Shown piece by piece: positions 16,827 through 51,920 of a stretch of 52,514 nt of DNA (its first letter is position 1; every line of letters starts with the position of its first letter). The stretch lies in contig JBAYUF010000002.1 in NCBI GenBank assembly GCA_041675205.1, positions 134,568 through 187,081 on the forward strand. Direction: 5' to 3'. Below the pieces are notes generated by a model. The model was given only the letters and a program-made list of their open reading frames with translations. It was not told the origin of the DNA and did no database searches. The translations under genes and the position numbers were made by a program. Origin of the DNA: Patescibacteria group bacterium. Lineage in GTDB: Bacteria > Patescibacteriota > Patescibacteriia > GWA2-46-9.

Positions 16827-17019
16827 CCCTTCTTTTTTTAAATCTCACCGCTCGTTGTTCCTGGTGCAGCGACTCGTCGACGCCTTGCGCGTCGCGGTCG
16901 CTGCAGCGGGTGGAACGGATAGCAACTTGAAAATTTCATAGTCCAATGCAAGCACACGGATGAAGACGCATCTTCACATAGATTAATTGCAGTTTTACTG
17001 GATGCTGATGAATATCAGC

Positions 17020-20156
<3,137 letters not shown>

Positions 20157-20255
20157 GCTGATGTGCGTCCACATCCAGCATGACTGTAATTTTTTTGATG
20201 CGTCAGACAGACGCGTGCTTGCATTGTGTTTTCACTCCAGCCGTGGGCTGCAGTG

Positions 20256-20364
20256 TCCTGGTGCTTCTAGCGGTGAGGCCACACCTGTTCCCATTTCGAA
20301 CACAGCCGTTAAGCTCACCAGCGCCGATGATACTCTTTCAGGGGAAAGTAGGTCAGCGCCAGGA
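20256..20364 (+). rRNA. rrf: 5S rRNA (~109 nt)
   Basis: TCCTGGTG..CACCTGTTCCCATTTCGAACACAG..CGCCGATG..AGTAGGTCAGCGCCAGGA, flanked by an extended stem gtgggctgca/tgcagcccac. Confidence 0.95.
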
Positions 20365-44473: not shown

Positions 44474-44526
44474 AAAGATTTGAAATTTTTTCCCTCACAT
44501 TCCGAATATTTCGGAATGATTTCTAT

Positions 44527-44648
44527 TGCTGCGGGACTACTGACCTCACTTATTTTACCTATCCAAAACCAAGTTTGACTTGGTGGTGTCCCGCCGCTGC
44601 GGGACTACTGTCAGTATAAACATTTTGAAAAATCAAAATGACCACTAA
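44527..44648 (-). repeat. tRNA-Leu(TAA) 3' trailer units (one complete, one truncated)
   Basis: Minus strand: ...TTGATTTTTCAAAATGTTTATACTGACAGTAGTCCCGCAGCGGCGGGACACCACCA, then ...TCAGTAGTCCCGCAGCA truncated. Confidence 0.8.
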
Positions 44649-44734
44649 TGGTGCCCGGGGAGGGAGTCGAACCCTCATGGCCGTGAGACCCGGGGATTTT
44701 AAGTCCCCTGCGTATACCATTCCGCCACCCGGGC
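44649..44734 (-). tRNA. tRNA-Leu(TAA)
   Basis: GCCCGGG/CCCGGGC acceptor, anticodon loop CTTAAAA, long variable arm, encoded CCA. Confidence 0.97.
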
Positions 44735-44741
44735 TTATGAA

Positions 44742-45086
44742 CTAGGAGAAGCTTAAAATAATCAGAGATATAACACCAATTGTTACCCCCGCTATTTGCC
44801 ACCCCGTGAGTGCCTCATTGAATATAAGCACACCGATGACTAAAAAACCAACGATGCTAAGGATTGTCCAGATAACAGATGTTATGACAAGCCCTTCTCG
44901 GAGTAAGGTTGGTATATAAAAAACAGCAGAGCCGATGTACCCAAGCACCGCCAAACCAAAGAGTAGTCGACTAGAATTGATTGACCAAAGTTTTGCAAAG
45001 TAATCACCGGCGACTACCGAGCTAGCACTCAGTAGCAAAAGAACGATAACGGGAATTTTCTCAATTAGTTGGCTACTGACAGACAT
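44742..45086 (-). CDS. Small 4-TM SMR/DMT-like membrane protein
   Basis: 114 aa hydrophobic; IFNEALTGWQIAGVTIG pattern. Confidence 0.75.
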   Translation of the reverse strand: MSVSSQLIEKIPVIVLLLLSASSVVAGDYFAKLWSINSSRLLFGLAVLGYIGSAVFYIPTLLREGLVITSVIWTILSIVGFLVIGVLIFNEALTGWQIAGVTIGVISLIILSFS

Positions 45087-45129
45087 AAAAATGGGTAGTG
45101 TGATTGATGCGCAGGATTTCTAAATCTTT

Positions 45130-45407
45130 CCGTTATCTAGCACCGTTGTCACGGCACTAAAGTTATTAGACTTTTCCGCTATGGTAGCCCCCCGTTGGGA
45201 CTACTGTCGTCGTTTATCTTTTGTCTCCGTCAAAAGTTTCACTATGGTAGCACCGTTGTCACGGCACTCCCGTCCTTGCATTTTCTATCACTATGGTAGC
45301 ACCGTTACTACGGCACTAAAGTCATTAGATTCTTTCCGTTATGGTAGCCCCGCTGCTGCGGGACTACTGATATCACTTATCTTTTGTCTTCGTCAAAAGT
45401 TTCACTA
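45130..45407 (-). repeat. Tandem array of five hairpin units behind tRNA-Met, four ending in GCTACCA
   Basis: Plus-strand anchors atggtagc at ~45181, 45244, 45293 and 45341, with a degenerate fifth unit at ~45135. Confidence 0.9.
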
Positions 45408-45484
45408 TGGTAGCAGGGGCGGGGCTCGAACCCGCGACCTCCGCCTTATGAAGGCGTTGCTCTAACCAGCTGAGCTACCCTGCC
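45408..45484 (-). tRNA. tRNA-CAT (elongator Met most likely; Ile2 not excluded)
   Basis: GGCAGGG/CCCTGCT acceptor (G1.U72), loop TTCATAA, encoded CCA; no initiator features. Confidence 0.93.
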
Positions 45485-45667
45485 ACAGAGATAAGATCCT
45501 ACAACGAACAATGACACAGGTGAAGGGTTTGTGTTGCCCCATGCCCGCCACAATGTGAAACTTTGGGCGGGCTGCCATAGAAGAGATAAAGTAGGGCGAA
45601 GTATAGCAGTCGTGGCGGGCCTCTGACAACCGTAGCCGACGACCAACAAATCAGTTATCATGGCGCC

Positions 45668-46051
45668 ATGACCGATGAAGTATTCAGCCAGCTTGTGCGT
45701 GAAGGAATAGATGCTATTCCAGAGCACTTCGGCAAGCTCGTGGATAATGTGGTTATAACCATAGAAGCAGTAGCGCGGCCCGAGCAGCTGAACGAAGTAC
45801 CCATAGCTCGGGGTCACACACTGCTTGGTTTGTACCAGGGTGTTCCTCAAACCCGTCGCGGACCAAACTACAGCATGGTGCTCCCTGATAAAATAACCAT
45901 TTTTAAAGAGCCCATTGTCGCGCTCGGTAACACCCCTGAGGGTATTCGAAAAATTGTCACCGACACTGTGTGGCATGAAGTTGCACACCACTTTGGTTTA
46001 GATGACGACGCCATTAATGCAGCACAGAAACGACGCCATGCTGCACTTTGA
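45668..46051 (+). CDS. Zincin-like metallopeptidase family protein
   Basis: LLGLYQGVP..R, PDKITIFK.PI, TVWHEVAHHFG. Confidence 0.88.
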   Translation: MTDEVFSQLVREGIDAIPEHFGKLVDNVVITIEAVARPEQLNEVPIARGHTLLGLYQGVPQTRRGPNYSMVLPDKITIFKEPIVALGNTPEGIRKIVTDTVWHEVAHHFGLDDDAINAAQKRRHAAL

Positions 46052-46658
46052 TCTTTCCCAAATTATTCAAACCGTCGGACTCTTGGGCGTCGCCGCTATA
46101 GTTTTTGCAGAGTCGGGGCTTCTTATTGGTTTCTTTCTGCCGGGGGATAGCCTGCTGTTCACGGCCGGACTACTGGCCTCACAAGGTGTTTTTTCATTCT
46201 CATTGCTCATTCTGCTCTCGTTTATAGCAGCAGTGGCAGGCGACAGTGTTGGGTATGCATTTGGGTATCGAATTGGTCCGCGGATTTTTACCCGAGAGGA
46301 TTCTCGATTTTTTAAAAAAGCACACCTTGAACAAGCACACAATTTTTTTGTTCGCTATGGCGCACAAGCCATTGTGCTGGCACGATTCATGCCCATTGTT
46401 AGAACGTTTACTCCGATTCTCGCAGGTGTTGGCAAAATGCCGTACCGCACATTCATCACTTATAATTTTATCGGTGCCGCATTGTGGGCGATTGGTATAC
46501 CGACACTTGGGTTCACTCTTGGTACACTTGTGCCAAGTATTGACGAGTACATTCTCCCTATAATTGCTGGAATCATCGTGGTGTCATTTATCCCGCCAAT
46601 TAAAAGCTGGTGGCAGTCGAGAAAGTCTTCACGAACCCAGGAAAGCACGCTAGGATAG
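46038..46658 (+). CDS. dedA: DedA (VTT/SNARE-associated) membrane protein
   Basis: FAESGLLIGFFLPGDSLLFTAG, ARFMPIVRTF.P..AG; ATG 46038. Confidence 0.92.
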   Translation: MLHFDLSQIIQTVGLLGVAAIVFAESGLLIGFFLPGDSLLFTAGLLASQGVFSFSLLILLSFIAAVAGDSVGYAFGYRIGPRIFTREDSRFFKKAHLEQAHNFFVRYGAQAIVLARFMPIVRTFTPILAGVGKMPYRTFITYNFIGAALWAIGIPTLGFTLGTLVPSIDEYILPIIAGIIVVSFIPPIKSWWQSRKSSRTQESTLG

Positions 46659-46674
46659 AAAAACTGTACTTTAG

Positions 46675-46748
46675 GCGGGCATCGTATAATGGTAATACCT
46701 CAGCTTTCCAAGCTGATGCCAGGGGTTCGATTCCCCTTGCCCGCTCCA
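46675..46748 (+). tRNA. tRNA-Gly(TCC)
   Basis: GCGGGCA/TGCCCGC acceptor, loop TTTCCAA, discriminator T plus encoded CCA. Confidence 0.97.
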
Positions 46749-47028
46749 AAAGCGGAACTTTTGACGGAGACAAAAGATAAATGATGATGGTGTCCCGCGT
46801 AGGCGGGACTCCAAGGAATTCAATCTTTGATTTTTCAAAATGTTTACGATGACAGTAGTCCCGCAGCAGCGGGGCTCCAACAGAGCCGAGTTTTTTACCA
46901 CGACAAAAGATAAATGATGATGGTGTCCCGCGTAGGCGGGACTCCAAAGAGTTAATTTTTCAAAATGTTTAGGATTTCAGTAGTCCCGCGTAGGCGGGAC
47001 TCCAGGGAACTTTTGACGGAGACAAAGG
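46749..47028 (+). repeat. Tandem array of four hairpin units (plus a partial fifth) behind tRNA-Gly, each ending in CTCCA
   Basis: Unit ends at ~46813, 46879, 46946 and 47004; two module types alternate. Confidence 0.9.
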
Positions 47029-47185
47029 CTAATGTAGTTTTTTTAAATTAATTTTTATCGCACAATTCAATGTACTAGTACATTGAATCAACAAAGAAAG
47101 GATCTCGATTTTACGCTGCGGAATCTTGATTTTATTCAAATAATCTGCTATAATTTAATAAATTAAGTAAACTTTATAATAAAAT

Positions 47186-47416
47186 ATGGGTTTATTCAGT
47201 GGAGAGCCAAAAGGTGAGTCGCATTTTTGGGCAAGTAGATTTATCCGCGAAAGGAAACCGGACGAAACAGAAGAGTCTAGCGACGAACCTGCGCACGGCC
47301 GTTTCGTACCTTTAGACGAAGCTCCCGGCACGGCACCTAGTCCAGAAGAAATATTGATTAGCCGGGAAAATGCTTTACCACCCGAGGAATTAACGAATAC
47401 AGATATAGAAGCGTAG
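47186..47416 (+). CDS. Short acidic hypothetical protein
   Basis: 76-aa ORF followed by a strong terminator. Confidence 0.55.
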   Translation: MGLFSGEPKGESHFWASRFIRERKPDETEESSDEPAHGRFVPLDEAPGTAPSPEEILISRENALPPEELTNTDIEA

Positions 47417-47436
47417 TTGTCGTGTCGCATTTCAAT

Positions 47437-47467
47437 CAAAGCCACCCTTACCGCAAGGGTGGCTTTG
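47437..47467 (+). terminator. Intrinsic terminator-like hairpin
   Basis: caaagccaccctt-accgc-aagggtggctttg. Confidence 0.75.
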
Positions 47468-47511
47468 TTGTTTCCGTGTCGGCAAAGAAAGCCCTGTGAT
47501 ACCATTGTCTT

Positions 47512-49032
47512 ATGAAACCAGAAACAATATTAAAAGATTGGCAAAAAAGAGCCATTAGAACACGGGAACTTTCATTTGCCCGTGCCTTATTCAAAACGTA
47601 TCCTGATTCCAATCTTTATTTGGTCGGGGGCATGGTGCGCGATTTGCTACTTGGTCGACAAACGAAAGACTATGATTTTGTAGTGACCAATGTTGCCGAG
47701 GCGAAATTACTAACGTTTCTAAAGCGACATGGCCGAGTGAATACCGTCGGCCGGACGTTCGGGGTTATAAAATTTGTTCCAACAGGTCAACACGGCAGCT
47801 TGGCCATTGATATTGCGCTGCCGCGGCTTGATTTACCAGCCAAGGGAACTGGTGCATATAGGGATATAAAGGTGGTGCGTCGTGCGTCTTTACCTATCGA
47901 AGAGGATCTTTTGCGTCGAGACTATACGGTGAATGCAATAGCCTGGGATATACGTGGTAAATGCATTGTCGACCCAACCGGCGGAATAGTTGATTTAAAG
48001 AAGCGACAATTACGTACGGTGGGTGATGCGGCAACTCGGTTCGCCGAAGATTACTCACGCGTCCTGCGTGGGTTACGATTTGCCGTTACACATAATTTTT
48101 CATTTGCACCAGCCACCTGGCGGGAGCTGCGGGTGGCGACGGCTGGGCTTGTAAAAAAAGTGAGCGGTGAATTTGTTGTACCGAGGGAAGTGATTGCTCG
48201 TGAGTTTTTGCGGACGTTCGTTGCAAATCCCGTTATTGCGCTCAACCTGTATGACCGCAGTACGGCACTTGAGAAATTAATTCCTGAACTGCGAGCCACG
48301 AAAACGTGCCCGCAACCGCGCAAGTATCACAGCGAAGGGTCTGTTTGGAAGCACACTGCGTTGGCACTCGCGGCGCTTGCCTCTAGACGCTTCCGGGCAA
48401 AGCATGCAGGCATTGATGCGGAGTTAGTTGTAACGGTGTTACTACACGACATAGCCAAGCCGACCATGCTCAGAACTCCAAAAAAGGATGGCGTCGATCG
48501 TGTTCGTTTTGATGGGCACGATGTCGAAGGTGGAAAAATGGCTGAAGCAATTTGTGAGCGACTGAAGCTCTCTGTGATGTCAGTAGATTCGGGACTACAC
48601 GTTGAGCCAACAAATGTGCGCTGGCTTATTCAGCACCATCTTCTCTTGTTGCACGGTCGGGTGACTGATATGAAGTTGCGCACGGTGCTAAAGTACTTCG
48701 TTGACCATCCTTTGGCAGAAAAGCTCAAGGCACTTTTGCTGGCCGATACGCTCGGCACTATTCCAGCCAGTGGAAAGCCGTACACAAAACATCTTGTTGA
48801 CCTAGAGCGCCATTTGAAGCGGATACCCCGACGTGATGGTAAGTTGCCAGCGCCACTACTTGGTGGTGACGGCATTATGCGCGTGGTGCGTATTGCCGCC
48901 GGGCCGGCCATTGGGTTTTTGAAACGTCGATTGCGCGAAGAGCAGTTGATGGGTACAGTACGCACCAAGCAGGCTGCCGTAGAGTTTATAAAAGACGAAT
49001 ATGCCAGAACATACACTGAAGGTTCCAATTGA
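47512..49032 (+). CDS. cca: Class II CCA tRNA nucleotidyltransferase with HD domain
   Basis: VGGMVRD..LG..TKDYDF, EDLLRRDYTVNAIA, DPTGG..DL, FAEDYSRVLRGLRF, LLHDIAKP. Confidence 0.88.
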   Translation: MKPETILKDWQKRAIRTRELSFARALFKTYPDSNLYLVGGMVRDLLLGRQTKDYDFVVTNVAEAKLLTFLKRHGRVNTVGRTFGVIKFVPTGQHGSLAIDIALPRLDLPAKGTGAYRDIKVVRRASLPIEEDLLRRDYTVNAIAWDIRGKCIVDPTGGIVDLKKRQLRTVGDAATRFAEDYSRVLRGLRFAVTHNFSFAPATWRELRVATAGLVKKVSGEFVVPREVIAREFLRTFVANPVIALNLYDRSTALEKLIPELRATKTCPQPRKYHSEGSVWKHTALALAALASRRFRAKHAGIDAELVVTVLLHDIAKPTMLRTPKKDGVDRVRFDGHDVEGGKMAEAICERLKLSVMSVDSGLHVEPTNVRWLIQHHLLLLHGRVTDMKLRTVLKYFVDHPLAEKLKALLLADTLGTIPASGKPYTKHLVDLERHLKRIPRRDGKLPAPLLGGDGIMRVVRIAAGPAIGFLKRRLREEQLMGTVRTKQAAVEFIKDEYARTYTEGSN

Positions 49033-49912
49033 TATAGGGAAACAACGCCTCGACCTCTATCTCGTAGCGTCCCTTGGGTTGTCGCGGAGTCGGGTGCAAC
49101 AGCTGATTCGTAGTGGGGCAGTGCTTATTAGTGGGGTTGCCCCAGTCATACACCATTGGTTAAAAGCAGGAGAAGTCATTACCGTTGTCGATAATCCAGA
49201 GGCGTTGATTCCTCCACCCCCAGCTCCAGAACTTGTTATTCTCGACGAGACTGAAGATTTTTTAGTTGTCGTCAAGCAAGCTGGCGTTCTTGTTCACCCG
49301 GCGCCGAACGCCAAAGCGCCAACCTTAACTTCCGCGTTACTAAACTATTTACCAGCCATCGCAACAGTTGGTCAGCCGGACCGCCCCGGTATCGTGCATC
49401 GTCTTGATCGTGATGTTTCTGGTCTTCTTGTGGTCGCTAAGACGGCAGCTATGTATGACTGGTTGGTGAACGAGTTTCGTGAACGACGAGTGGAGAAGCA
49501 GTACACCGCACTGGTGCACGGCAGCATTGATCGTGACGAAGGTCTTATAACGTTTCCGATTGGTCGCTCGAAAACAAATCCGGGTCGTATGGCTGCTCGA
49601 CCAAGCGGTGGTGAAGGACGGTCCGCCGAGACTGCGTACACGGTGCTTACTCGGTATGTTAACTTCACGTTACTTTCCGTGGTCATTCATACTGGCCGAA
49701 CGCACCAAATACGAACCCACCTCAATGCCCTGGGTCACCCCGTGGTAGGGGACGCGTTGTACGGTAAAGTGTTGGCTCAGGGTGTGGCGTTGCCTCGACT
49801 TTTTTTGCAGGCGACGAATCTTGGATTCCGCGACTCACAGGAAGTTTGGCATCGGTATACGTTGCCGCTCGACGCTGAACTTGCTACCTTCTTGACTACC
49901 ATAACGGCATGA
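49001..49912 (+). CDS. RluA/RluD family pseudouridine synthase with S4 domain
   Basis: RLDLYL, RPGIVHRLDRDVSG, HTGRTHQIR.H...GHPVVGD.LYG. Confidence 0.93.
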   Translation: MPEHTLKVPIDIGKQRLDLYLVASLGLSRSRVQQLIRSGAVLISGVAPVIHHWLKAGEVITVVDNPEALIPPPPAPELVILDETEDFLVVVKQAGVLVHPAPNAKAPTLTSALLNYLPAIATVGQPDRPGIVHRLDRDVSGLLVVAKTAAMYDWLVNEFRERRVEKQYTALVHGSIDRDEGLITFPIGRSKTNPGRMAARPSGGEGRSAETAYTVLTRYVNFTLLSVVIHTGRTHQIRTHLNALGHPVVGDALYGKVLAQGVALPRLFLQATNLGFRDSQEVWHRYTLPLDAELATFLTTITA

Positions 49913-50508
49913 CTCCGAAACCGCTGAAACAAAAAAATACCGGCACCCTCTTTCTTTTGGTGGGTCCGTCGCGTGTGGGCAAAGACACCATTCTTCGTTC
50001 GCTGCTCCGGCGTAGAAGTTTGGGACTCGTGAAACTCGTAACCATGACAACTCGTTTGCGTCGACCGGGTGAGATAGCCGGGAAGACGTATCATTACGTA
50101 TCCGACGATGCATTTCAGGAGCGCATAGCAAAAAAGCAGTTACTCGAATGGGCACCAGTGCGTAATTATAAATATGGGACACCGAAAGAGCCGTTACTAA
50201 CATTGTTGCAGCAAGGTCACAATGTCATTCAACAGATTGACGTACGAGGTGCCGCAGCACTTCGAGCCCGCACGCTGCGAACAATAACCATTTTTATACT
50301 CCCTGGTTCCCTTGCCGAACTAAAAGTGCGACTTAGTTCGAACACGTTTACCCCAGAACAGCGGCGGGTGCGATGGACAGAGACCGAACAAGAATTAGCA
50401 CGTCAGACCGAGTTTGATTATCGCATTGTGAATACGCAAGGAAAATTAGGGCAGGCGGTTGATGAGGTTGCTGCTATCATTCGGAGTATTGCGCAAGTGC
50501 ACTCTTGA
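49909..50508 (+). CDS. gmk: Guanylate kinase
   Basis: GPSRVGKDT, TTRLRRPGE..G..YHY, YGTP, IDVRGA. Confidence 0.92.
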   Translation: MTPKPLKQKNTGTLFLLVGPSRVGKDTILRSLLRRRSLGLVKLVTMTTRLRRPGEIAGKTYHYVSDDAFQERIAKKQLLEWAPVRNYKYGTPKEPLLTLLQQGHNVIQQIDVRGAAALRARTLRTITIFILPGSLAELKVRLSSNTFTPEQRRVRWTETEQELARQTEFDYRIVNTQGKLGQAVDEVAAIIRSIAQVHS

Positions 50509-50589
50509 CTGACCGTACGTTATTGCTTAGAATAGCTGAGCATTTTACCCCCGAAATTCGGGCTTTTTTATTCGATTTTTGAGCGTTGT

Positions 50590-51105
50590 ATGGCTGAAGA
50601 AGAAGTAGAGAAAACTGAAGAGGTGCCAGTTGCCCCTTCTGAAGAACCAAAAGAAGCAGCTACAGCCCCAGAGATGGCGGCTGAGGTGCCTGCTGAAACT
50701 GTTGAAGCCGAGCCAGCAGAGGCGACGGCTGAAGAAGTTGTGGCTGTCAGTGAGGCTGCCGTGGTGAGTGTTGGCCCAGTGTACCCAGAAGTAGTGCCGG
50801 GTGCTCTCGTGCGGGTACACCAACGAATTCGGGAAGTTACGCCAAAGGGCGAAGAGAAAGAGCGTGTACAGATTTTCGAAGGTACGGTCATAGGTCGGAA
50901 GCATGGCTCAGAAGCCGGTGCCACTATTACCGTTCGCAAAATCTCAAATGGCGTTGGTGTTGAAAAGATTTTCCCACTGCACTTACCAACCATCGACAAG
51001 ATTGAAGTGAAGAAGCTCTACCGAGTGCGTCGAGCAAAGCTTGGTTATCTCCGAACATCAAAGAAGCGAATTAAGGAAGTGAAGAAGGTTACTGCTGCGG
51101 CGTAA
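50590..51105 (+). CDS. rplS: 50S ribosomal protein L19 with acidic N-terminal extension
   Basis: [35 protein letters not shown]. Confidence 0.95.
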
Positions 51106-51149
51106 CCTTGCGTGGCGTCTGACAGGGCGCTACACTCTACAAATTGTGC

Positions 51150-51236
51150 GCGCGGGTGGCGGAATTGGTATACGCGCTAGCTTGAGGGGCTAGTGGGAGC
51201 AATCCCATGGAGGTTCGAGTCCTCTCCCGCGCACCA
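51150..51236 (+). tRNA. tRNA-Leu(GAG)
   Basis: GCGCGGG/CCCGCGC acceptor, loop TTGAGGG, long variable arm, encoded CCA. Confidence 0.97.
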
Positions 51237-51670
51237 AAAAAAATTGCTGACTTTGCGTCAGCTATTTTTTTTGGTGAAGGCAAGGAAGGACTCGAACCTG
51301 GGAAAGGGGTCGGGAAAACGGAAGTTTTCCCGCAGCGGAATTATTCAAACCGAGGGGTTTGAAAGAGGAGCTTTGGCGACGAGGGTTCTAGGAGCGAAGC
51401 GACGGAGTCCTCTCCCGCGCACCAGTAATGTATATAACGATAGTAGTCCCGAAATAGCGGGGCACCAAAAAAAATTGCTGACTTTGCGTCAGTGATTTTT
51501 TTTGGTGAAGACAAGGAAGGACTCGAACCTGGGGAAGGGGTTCCGCCAGAGGCGGACAGACGGGGAGCGGAGAAGTTTCTCTGCGGCGGAATCTCGCCCG
51601 CAACACCAGTGCGTAGCACTGCCGGCAGGTATTCTCCTCCAAGGGCGGATCCTCCTTTGGTGGAAAACCG
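51237..51670 (+). repeat. Composite tRNA-Leu(GAG) trailer: inverted and direct copies of the tRNA 3' half plus palindromic modules
   Basis: Antisense T-arm 51288-51299; 20-nt direct repeat 51405-51424; ~78-nt duplication 51231-51309 / 51462-51540. Confidence 0.88.
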
Positions 51671-51920
51671 AACAATGATAATGGATATAAAAGAGAAGTC
51701 CGCCGCGGTGGACAACAAAGGCTATATTTCGGCTATATTCTTAGCCAGCGCATCAGTTTTTTATTATGATGGTGTCCTAATGTGTACAATATTAGTAGTC
51801 CCTATTTTAGGGGGGCATCAGCGATATTCTATCAATATATAGTTTGACTAAATGTTAAAAATATAGTATGCTAGCTCTGATTTTAACAGACTTGTTTTAC
51901 TAGAAATCGTTATTTTCAAA

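Follow-up and report, generated by a model that had tools for sequence, protein, structure and literature searches.

Small two-hairpin cassettes behind tRNA genes in one family of Patescibacteria: a new, lineage-restricted relative of the E. coli tRNA-linked repeats

Results

Arrays of structured units directly downstream of tRNA genes

We analysed a stretch of 52,514 nucleotides (hereafter the window) from a Patescibacteria group bacterium (GenBank assembly GCA_041675205.1, contig JBAYUF010000002.1, positions 134,568 to 187,081 of the forward strand), in which several tRNA genes are followed directly by arrays of short hairpin units that end in the last bases of the tRNA in front of them. A preliminary description, made from the sequence alone, had reported such arrays behind tRNA-Leu(TAA), tRNA-Met(CAT), tRNA-Gly(TCC) and tRNA-Leu(GAG), had derived their units from a common pool of modules and had interpreted them as cassettes repeatedly added or shuffled at tRNA 3' ends. 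ARAGORN and Rfam placed seven tRNA genes in the window, among them these four at the positions described. The shared sequences on which the description relied were recovered as well: the 26-mer AACTTTTGACGGAGACAAAAGATAAA lies at 46756 (plus strand) and 45213 (minus strand), the 20-mer TTGATTTTTCAAAATGTTTA at 46827 (plus) and 44617 (minus), both being absent from the rest of the genome, and AGTAGTCCCG, with one mismatch allowed, turns up 14 times in the window where 1.65 occurrences are expected; none of 100 shuffles gave so high a count. The array region of 6.6 kb was 100% identical in two other assemblies, one from ENA and one from Logan, and because of this base-for-base identity it is not an assembly artefact. 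The four loci are composed as follows.

44649-44734, minus strand: tRNA-Leu(TAA), 3' end ...GGGCACCA at 44649
44584-44648, minus strand: Leu-TAA unit 1, complete; box TTAGTGGT, hairpin 1 CATTTTGA/TCAAAATG, linker, CAGTAG, hairpin 2 TCCCGC-AGCG-GCGGGA, tail CACCA
44527-44583, minus strand: Leu-TAA unit 2; opens with the CCAAGTCAAACTTGG hairpin and breaks off after CAGTAGTCCCGCAGCA, in the loop of hairpin 2
44498-44526, minus strand: start of a third Leu-TAA unit, ATAGAAATC and hairpin ATTCCGAA/TTCGGAAT; abuts the half-hairpin of unit 2 and is followed by the next gene
45408-45484, minus strand: tRNA-Met(CAT), 3' end ...CCCTGCTACCA at 45408
45342-45407, minus strand: Met unit M1; box TAGTGA, hairpin CTTTTG/CAAAAG, CAGTAG, hairpin 2, tail CTACCA
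45294-45341, minus strand: Met unit M2; a different hairpin type, TAGTGCCGT/ACGGTGCTA, then CCA
45245-45293, minus strand: Met unit M3; hairpin type as in M2
45182-45244, minus strand: Met unit M4; carries the 26-mer common to Gly unit U1 (45213-45238)
45114-45181, minus strand: Met unit M5; tail mutated (GCTAGA), then the truncated start of a further unit
46675-46748, plus strand: tRNA-Gly(TCC), 3' end ...GCCCGCTCCA
46749-46813, plus strand: Gly unit U1, type A; hairpin CTTTTG/CAAAAG, TGGTG, hairpin 2, CTCCA
46814-46879, plus strand: Gly unit U2, type B; hairpin TTTGA/TCAAA, CAGTAG, hairpin 2, CTCCA
46880-46946, plus strand: Gly unit U3, type A; its last 45 nt equal those of U1
46947-47004, plus strand: Gly unit U4, type B; hairpin 1 partly lost
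47005-47037, plus strand: terminal piece of the Gly array, a truncated and diverged type-A unit start
51150-51236, plus strand: tRNA-Leu(GAG), 3' end ...CCCGCGCACCA
51237-51424, plus strand: first X-type cassette; terminator hairpin, then the tRNA end in inverted form, a structured core and 21 nt of the tRNA 3' end in direct orientation
51425-51467, plus strand: Leu-GAG short unit without hairpin 1; GTAATGTATATAACGA, TAGTAG, hairpin TCCCG/CGGGG, tail CACCA
51468-51608, plus strand: second X-type cassette; 5' terminator and arm as in the first, a different core, end ...CAACACCA with a direct tRNA-end copy of about 5 nt

The Gly array thus holds four units of 58-67 nt, each with a CTCCA end, and the Met array four units with a GCTACCA end and a fifth with a mutated tail. 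Unit 1 of Leu-TAA scored 71 bits with the covariance model described below (minimum free energy -25.6, z -5.3). At tRNA-Leu(GAG) the preliminary picture of an array held in part: one short unit with a GCACCA end is present, and most of the supposed tail region belongs to two cassettes, on either side of it, of another, larger family that we call X-type. These X-type cassettes carry their own terminator hairpin with an A-run and a T-run, copies of tRNA ends of 18-21 nt were seen in them, and the family recurs elsewhere in the genome behind tRNA-Glu(CTC), Ile(TAT), Trp and Gln(TTG).

Two covarying hairpins define the unit

When all copies in the 1.15-Mb genome were laid out, the order of parts was box, hairpin 1, linker, CAGTAG, hairpin 2, a C and the tail. 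The box, (A/T)TA(A/G)CGTN or ATAACGT-like, follows the tRNA CCA directly. Hairpin 1 has 8-9 bp and varies in sequence between loci with compensating changes, and an AT-rich linker of about 11 nt leads from it to CAGTAG. Hairpin 2 reads TCCCGC-N4-GCGGGR; together with the G from CAGTAG and the C that precedes the tail it forms a 7-bp stem, followed by N-CCA. The tail consists of the last 4-7 nt of the local tRNA, and the whole unit is non-coding and measures 35-67 nt. Short units without hairpin 1 occur as 3 x 36 nt behind tRNA-Leu(TAG) and as 4 x 34 nt at C2:90715. The two hairpins are unrelated to each other, the constant CAGTAG does not covary with the tail, and the stem of hairpin 2, apart from G1:C72, is no copy of the acceptor stem of the local tRNA.

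In an alignment of 11 units, which were picked by eye and therefore somewhat favour pairing, 98.7% of the cells pair and 8 of the 14 pairs are changed on both sides; this level of pairing and covariation was matched by none of 500 shuffles, and no slid register came close. Compensatory changes between orthologous units lend independent support to structural selection: hairpin 1 of the tRNA-Tyr unit reads CACGG/CCGTG in G001 and CATGG/CCATG in G003, a double change from C:G to T:A, and the orthologous Leu-TAG units of G000 and G002 differ by a compensatory change from A:T to G:C.

The hairpin that opens Leu-TAA unit 2 has a wider occurrence. This trailer module, CCAAGTCAAACTTGG(TTTGACG...), at 44569-44583 on the minus strand of the window, lies directly 3' of several U73 tRNAs in relatives, namely tRNA-Gly(CCC), Gly(GCC) and Thr(CGT) of G004, and on Logan contig L260, so that the pool of trailer modules is wider than the modelled family. 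In the trailer of tRNA-Thr(CGT) of G002 (L202/L041), tail, box and hairpin 1 together make a 47-nt perfect palindrome (CTCCAATAATGCTCCTTCCGAC-CGT-GTCGGAAGGAGCATTATTGGAG), with N runs nearby in the assembly.

The family is restricted to one lineage and bound to tRNA 3' ends

The units are restricted to one taxonomic family of Patescibacteria. We built a covariance model of the unit and ran it against 401 genomes of the class; it matched in all 5 genomes of the taxonomic family to which the window belongs (13, 8, 5, 1 and 1 matches), and the remaining 396 genomes yielded two borderline matches only (E 0.003 and 0.008). A scan of metagenomes with the hairpin 2 pattern returned at least 119 stretches, only 2 of which passed the full model at E<=0.01, one as a weak full-length match (L102, 29 bits) and one as a match to hairpin 2 alone; the other stretches are chance GC hairpins that fail the full model.

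In the genome under study, 11 of the 13 model matches are found on the strand of a tRNA and at most 600 nt downstream of it, a zone that makes up 1.3% of the strand-space (p~1e-19), which bears out the proposed tie to tRNA 3' ends; the other two are away from any tRNA. All of the 11 tRNA-associated matches are co-oriented with their tRNA (p~5e-4 for random orientation). A search independent of the family, for a hairpin followed by the tRNA's own last 5 nt, gave 19 cases downstream of tRNAs, 2 upstream and 1 antisense genome-wide. The suggestion that the tails are confined to tRNAs with an encoded CCA survives as a trend only, with units behind 10 of 33 CCA-encoding and 1 of 16 CCA-less tRNAs (Fisher p=0.08), the exception being one unit behind the CCA-less tRNA-Ser(CGA). 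At some loci, such as Gly-GCC and Leu-TAG of G002, the arrays lie between the tRNA and a terminator.

Outgroup contigs with the same neighbouring genes carry a tRNA-Gly(TCC) without units, tRNA-Leu(TAA) following after 58 nt, and this arrangement is likely to represent the empty ancestral state. Within the family, the Leu-TAG and Gly-TCC units are kept across genera, and for the same tRNA the presence and copy number of units vary widely between genera.

The tails follow the host tRNA and decay

The table of loci against tails is essentially diagonal, as expected from the earlier claim of locus-matched ends: at nine independent loci every tail matches its own tRNA (chance ~7e-4). When the flanks of 85 tRNAs from two relatives were included, tails were found to follow the host tRNA in three genera, with the assignments listed below. 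Those seen in the two relatives comprise CTCCA at Gly-TCC and Gly-GCC, CACCA at Leu-TAG, Leu-CAG and Tyr, and CTAC... at Met.

CTCCA: Gly-TCC and Gly-GCC, and Thr-TGT in this genome
CACCA: Leu-TAA, Leu-TAG, Leu-CAG, Leu-CAA, Leu-GAG, Val-GAC and Tyr
CTACCA: Met (CTAC... in relatives)
GACCA: Pro-CGG

Decayed tails were found in single or older units, whose hairpins are still paired. They read CCACCG at Tyr of G001, CTACT and CTA- at Met of G002 and G004, ACCT and ACAT at a second tRNA-Met locus (3' end AACCA) that is probably the initiator, GAACA in unit 1 of Pro-CGG, TTCA at Leu-CAA and AACA at C2:90715. Since tails decay while hairpins persist, the tail looks like a historical signature of the arrival of a unit, that is, of insertion, and not like a functional CCA end under selection. 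The earlier idea of CCA-ending minihelix RNAs is weakened by the same decay, by the compensatory changes that keep the hairpins and by the off-tRNA copies, which lack a 3' CCA.

Nested insertions, and probable array growth and exchange between loci

The insertion that can be delimited best lies in the Leu-TAG array. There, a full unit of 63-65 nt sits right after the TCCCGC of hairpin 2 in one 36-nt short unit; it interrupts one of four otherwise identical short units, and the uninterrupted ones show the empty state. The parts on either side of it, a prefix of 21 and a suffix of 17 nt, exceed the 36 nt of the short unit by 2, so that no more than 2 nt (GC) were duplicated. A related unit occupies the same position of hairpin 2 at Pro-TGG, and it has in common with the Leu-TAG insert an otherwise unseen hairpin-1 type, ATTCCTGC/GCAGGAAT.

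Further copies were found outside the usual setting. A complete unit at C3:63329-63392 (L048) lies between the grpE stop codon and dnaK, the stop codon falling in the degenerate ACCT-TAGGC start of the unit, and the insertion may have reshaped the C-terminus of GrpE; a comparison with relatives yielded no empty site at grpE-dnaK, as these were too diverged or differed in synteny. At C2:90678-90880 (L007 1464-1660), outside the window, one full unit is followed by four head-to-tail short units of 34 nt and a truncated one, in an ORF-poor (open reading frame) region with no tRNA within 15 kb and no Rfam match; the first unit is preceded by CAACCA, and CAACA stands behind every unit. The unit behind tRNA-Ser(CGA) is embedded in a larger X-type cassette and shows no clear target duplication. 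These nested and off-tRNA copies start with a degenerate NCCA and box (TACA-TAAAC, ATCC-TAAG, CAACA-ATAAC, ACCT-TAGGC and AACCA-AAGTGG), and none has a CCA after hairpin 2 where the 3' flank is readable, from which we infer a moving segment that begins with N73-CCA and extends as far as the foot of hairpin 2.

Within arrays, the pattern is A-B-A-B at Gly (TRF period 67, U1 and U3 being alike over the last 45 nt) and A-C-C'-A-C at Met, which points to block duplication, and arrays end in partial, more diverged units. Between loci, identities of 0.83 (Gly U2 and Leu-TAA unit 1), 0.81 (Gly U2 and Thr-TGT) and 0.82 (Gly U1 and Met M1) were level with those within loci, in agreement with a common pool of modules. 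Loci resemble each other in the body that spans hairpins 1 and 2, each keeping its own box and tail. The Leu-TAA, Met and Gly loci are at most 2.5 kb apart and in inverted orientation, an arrangement that favours conversion; the Thr-TGT unit is on another contig.

Neighbouring genes and other features

A CCA-adding enzyme of class II, with a PolyA_pol head and an HD domain, is encoded at 47512-49032 on the plus strand, 500 nt downstream of the Gly array and on its strand, with a 76-aa open reading frame and a terminator-like hairpin in between. At 51794-51822 (plus strand), 560 nt past tRNA-Leu(GAG) and after about 185 nt of GC-rich hairpins, there is a hairpin of similar look, TAGTAG-TCCCT-ATTTT-AGGGGG-CATCA. 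The 17019-20364 region matches 23S rRNA, with 3141 nt against a model of 2925 positions, and may contain insertions inside the 23S gene; 5S comes after it, no 16S was found in the window, and tRNA-Ala(TGC) is on the opposite strand, 2.5 kb from 23S/5S. The rRNA operon seems to be unlinked. Outside the window, at C2:117428-117523, ARAGORN called an unusually long tRNA-Asn(GTT) of 96 nt, which could contain an intron or be a mis-call. Consensus scans of the arrays for promoters or terminators gave nothing above shuffles.

Discussion

Relation to known repeats and mobile elements

The E. coli tRNA-linked repeats (TLR; tyrT/rtT) were reportedly described by Egan and Landy in 1978 and by Rudd in 1999. 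They number 22, distributed over ten loci with 1-5 at each; every unit is transcribed with the tRNA or rRNA gene upstream of it and closes with 18-19 nt of that gene, the repeated 3' end is thought to be important for processing, and neither origin nor function has an accepted account (PMC8144298). Like them, the present units are non-coding, lie directly distal to a tRNA on its strand, singly or in tandem, and close with a copy of the upstream gene's 3' end. They differ from the E. coli units, of about 100-180 nt with copies of 18-19 nt, in their size of 35-67 nt and copies of 4-7 nt, and in being modular, with two covarying hairpins, and confined to one family of Patescibacteria. We consider them a new, lineage-restricted relative of the TLR, a likeness of organization: no Rfam match that would indicate homology to RtT/TLR was obtained at E<=1, where only tRNAs and chance matches appeared. 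The preliminary view that no described family is involved is correct as far as Rfam goes, and full-text literature searches found no published description of the present units; it has to be qualified by the E. coli repeats, which share the defining trait. A loose parallel in function is found in M. kandleri, where a palindromic motif downstream of tRNA genes has been suggested to signal maturation (PMC5217627).

Resemblances to other systems were tested one by one, and repetitive extragenic palindromes with their associated transposases (REP/RAYT), palindrome-associated transposable elements (PATE), attC cassettes, tRNA-targeting elements, miniature inverted-repeat transposable elements (MITE) and clustered regularly interspaced short palindromic repeats (CRISPR) each fail at least one of the defining features tested. 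Most units have GTAG directly 5' of a GC-rich hairpin (CAGTAG and TCCCGC-N4-GCGGGR) and many clustered intergenic copies, as do REPs; however, the genome encodes no Y1/RAYT, the copies are not scattered over gene ends but stand at tRNA trailers and two other sites, in direct orientation and without inverted pairs, and hairpin 2 covaries between genera and is therefore not a fixed protein site. IS200/IS605 PATE are reminiscent of our units in their fixed orientation and in an end hairpin with a conserved guide-like stretch 5' of the hairpin foot. Insertion 3' of a short motif without target duplication may be a further likeness: the nested insertion duplicates at most 2 nt, and ...GC is the only target feature in common, beyond which no fixed tetranucleotide could be defined. 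No TnpA (Y1) is encoded, however, and the two hairpins are unlike each other. Integron arrays, too, are closed by hairpins conserved in structure and variable in sequence, with the cassette boundary at the 3' foot of the hairpin and the last bases belonging to the neighbour, but neither an integron integrase nor R''/R' or GTTRRRY cores, an attI/promoter platform or cassette ORFs were found. As in cis-mobilizable elements (CIME) and other tRNA-targeting elements, the tRNA 3' end would be renewed and the original displaced, tandem arrays are bounded by a repeated core, and direct repeats of the tRNA 3' part flank the units with the tRNA gene intact. These repeats are very short (4-7 nt), however, the replaced part would be N73-CCA with 1-2 nt more instead of 15-50 nt, and the cassettes are gene-free, have no integrase nearby and are spread over many host tRNA species. 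A CRISPR array was dismissed because its 'spacers' would themselves be shared modules and the C2:90715 array is spacer-free, and MITEs with a target-site duplication (TSD) because terminal inverted repeats are missing, the apparent duplication varies from 2 to 7 nt and a single orientation is seen.

Proposed insertion at the tRNA 3' end

The explanation that we favour, to which we give roughly even credence, is that the units are DNA cassettes, small, structured and specific to the lineage, whose point of entry and multiplication is the junction between GC and NCCA of tRNA genes. A cassette would have arrived at the extreme 3' end of a tRNA gene with an encoded CCA and given rise there to further local copies, all of which would be transcribed together with that gene. 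The moving segment would comprise N73-CCA, box, hairpin 1, the AT-rich linker, CAGTAG and hairpin 2 ending in ...GC, and it would enter after the last G-C pair of the acceptor stem, between ...GC and NCCA. In doing so it would supply a new NCCA to the tRNA and push the old one behind hairpin 2, so that every unit 'ends' in the tail of its host tRNA, and only tail-compatible copies would persist at a given tRNA. Such an entry would explain the locus-matched tails without target duplication as well as the fixed orientation. Arrays would grow mainly by duplication of blocks of one or two units, and loci would exchange bodies from hairpin 1 to hairpin 2 by recombination. Selection would keep the hairpins, either for a part that they play in the processing or stability of the tRNA precursor or as a requirement of the mechanism of spread, and the CCA tail itself would not be maintained. 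The joints might be made by an enzyme acting in trans or by illegitimate recombination at the 2-nt GC microhomology. The earlier wording, in which tRNA 3' ends repeatedly gain cassettes or have them shuffled, describes fairly what is seen.

Several observations weigh against this explanation. A six-frame search of the whole genome with PF01797, in which the controls worked, gave 0 matches to a Y1/RAYT transposase, and the co-occurring transposase or dedicated integrase that one might have looked for was not found in the genome. The only enzymes of recombination type are a retron-type reverse transcriptase and an Xer-like tyrosine recombinase, which is encoded some 100 kb away from the arrays on their contig and falls below the cut-off for integron integrases; beside the arrays there is no recombinase gene. 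Exploitation of Xer/dif was considered and set aside: a few units read ATAA-N6-TTATGAC after CCA, a weak likeness that does not extend to the units in general, and no canonical dif turned up. Four or five off-tRNA copies with a degenerate 5' 'NCCA' are the basis on which the phase of the moving segment is read, and the flanks at C2:90678, which both carry CAAC(C)A, would also be compatible with a target duplication. Transfer between tRNAs with different discriminators would mutate the recipient tRNA, so that modules common to Gly (U73) and Leu/Met (A73) require selection or an exchange of bodies only. A comparison of strains, which the preliminary description had recommended, saw no gain or loss of units, as the other assemblies found were all identical: contigs encoding an identical neighbour protein were 100% identical, the same was true for G002, and the closest other homologues were at most 73% identical. 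Finally, a host function would account for the retention of the Leu-TAG and Gly-TCC units across genera no less well than a selfish element.

Alternative explanations

That last point leads to the alternative that the units are functional tRNA-trailer RNAs, processed from the tRNA precursor, whose function would lie in CCA-ending microhelices or punctuation, with spread between loci being secondary. Hairpin 2 and the tail, as a 7-bp G1:C72 microhelix with discriminator and CCA, would then resemble a minimal substrate of RNase P or of 3'-end processing. Strict co-orientation and immediate adjacency to tRNAs, the covariation of both hairpins, the 7-bp stem formed before NCCA with the flanking G and C, a discriminator that matches in every case, the position of some arrays ahead of the terminator and the parallels in E. 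coli (PMC8144298) and M. kandleri (PMC5217627) all agree with such a role. Nevertheless, we judge it unlikely, if deserving of serious attention, given that the CCA is mutated in many units with intact hairpins, that off-tRNA copies lack it, that the stem of hairpin 2 does not resemble the local acceptor stem beyond G1:C72 and that the same tRNA differs so widely between genera in its units. A second alternative is offered by miniature integrase-dependent integrative elements or their scars, CIME-like and formed by tandem accretion, in which a serine or tyrosine recombinase encoded elsewhere would join a cassette attP, the hairpin 2 ...GC/NCCA box, to tRNA 3' ends, the tail being a short crossover or identity core. 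Direct repeats of the tRNA 3' end do bound every unit, orientation is fixed, a gene-cassette array at tRNA-Trp ends in a T-arm-like ...CCTGCCA, X-type cassettes of the same genome carry the longer tRNA-end copies mentioned above, and the GC common to target and cassette end could be a 2-bp crossover dinucleotide. A sequence-specific integrase, however, normally uses one attB, and here more than ten tRNA species with unrelated acceptor and T-arm sequences are targeted with an identity of merely 4-7 nt; no integrase adjoins any array, the sole tyrosine recombinase is Xer-like, and the likeness of box and hairpin 1 to dif is weak and not general. We regard this as unlikely too.

Dedicated mobility may also be dispensed with altogether. 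Tandem duplication from within the tRNA end is the classical explanation of the tyrT repeats of 3.14 x 178 bp, and a duplication with its left end in the last bases of the tRNA, followed by unequal crossing-over and ectopic gene conversion between hairpins, would account for the block periodicity (A-B-A-B at Gly, A-C..A-C at Met), for the identical tandem short units at Leu-TAG and C2:90715, for the partial, more diverged units that close arrays and for sharing among the inverted Leu-TAA, Met and Gly loci within 2.5 kb. Such a process cannot seed sites without homology (grpE-dnaK, C2:90678, the X-type cassette behind tRNA-Ser and the two hairpin-2 loops), and it leaves unexplained why the same architecture with the correct tail is found behind more than ten tRNAs on different contigs, which makes it improbable as a full account. 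The least convincing candidate is an ordinary MITE moved by a DDE transposase with a preference for ...NCCA targets and a TSD of 4-7 bp. The tail on both sides of each unit at tRNA sites and the CAACCA/CAACA flanks at C2:90678 would suit it, yet the units have no terminal inverted repeats, keep one orientation to the tRNA (11 of 11 in this genome) and show apparent duplications of 2-7 nt instead of a fixed length, the only insertion with a known empty site duplicated at most 2 nt, and the copy embedded at Ser-CGA has no clear duplication; we disfavour it as very improbable. A joint reading, which we find conceivable and rather doubtful, would have the cassettes expressed as a new class of tRNA-appended small RNAs: processing of the tRNA precursor, of RNase P type and at the 3' end, would free 7-bp G1:C72 microhelices with the discriminator and CCA of the neighbouring tRNA. 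Enzymes or toxins that recognize the 3' ends of tRNAs, among them the CCA-adding enzyme encoded near the Gly array, would meet these acceptor-end mimics in trans, as decoys, sponges or substrates. Their spread as DNA would be a copy-and-paste of the trailer segment from N73-CCA to the hairpin, possibly via an RNA intermediate.

Implications

Repeats that end in the 3' end of an upstream tRNA have been known from E. coli since 1978, without an accepted origin or function. The present family is smaller, has a clear two-hairpin build and carries a measurable record in its compensatory changes, tail decay, nested insertions and outgroup empty state; its host genomes are tiny and have very few recombinases, which makes it a tractable case. 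Entry of cassettes between GC and NCCA, as favoured here, provides the first hints on the insertion phase of repeats of the tRNA-linked kind. The X-type cassettes and the tRNA-Trp array show, moreover, that cassettes of several kinds accumulate at the tRNA 3' ends of this genome. For annotators this is a warning that the tRNA trailers of Patescibacteria hold structured repeat families present in no database. How tRNA 3' ends attract and multiply small cassettes, and whether such cassettes are processing signals, selfish DNA or both, are questions that can be addressed in these organisms.

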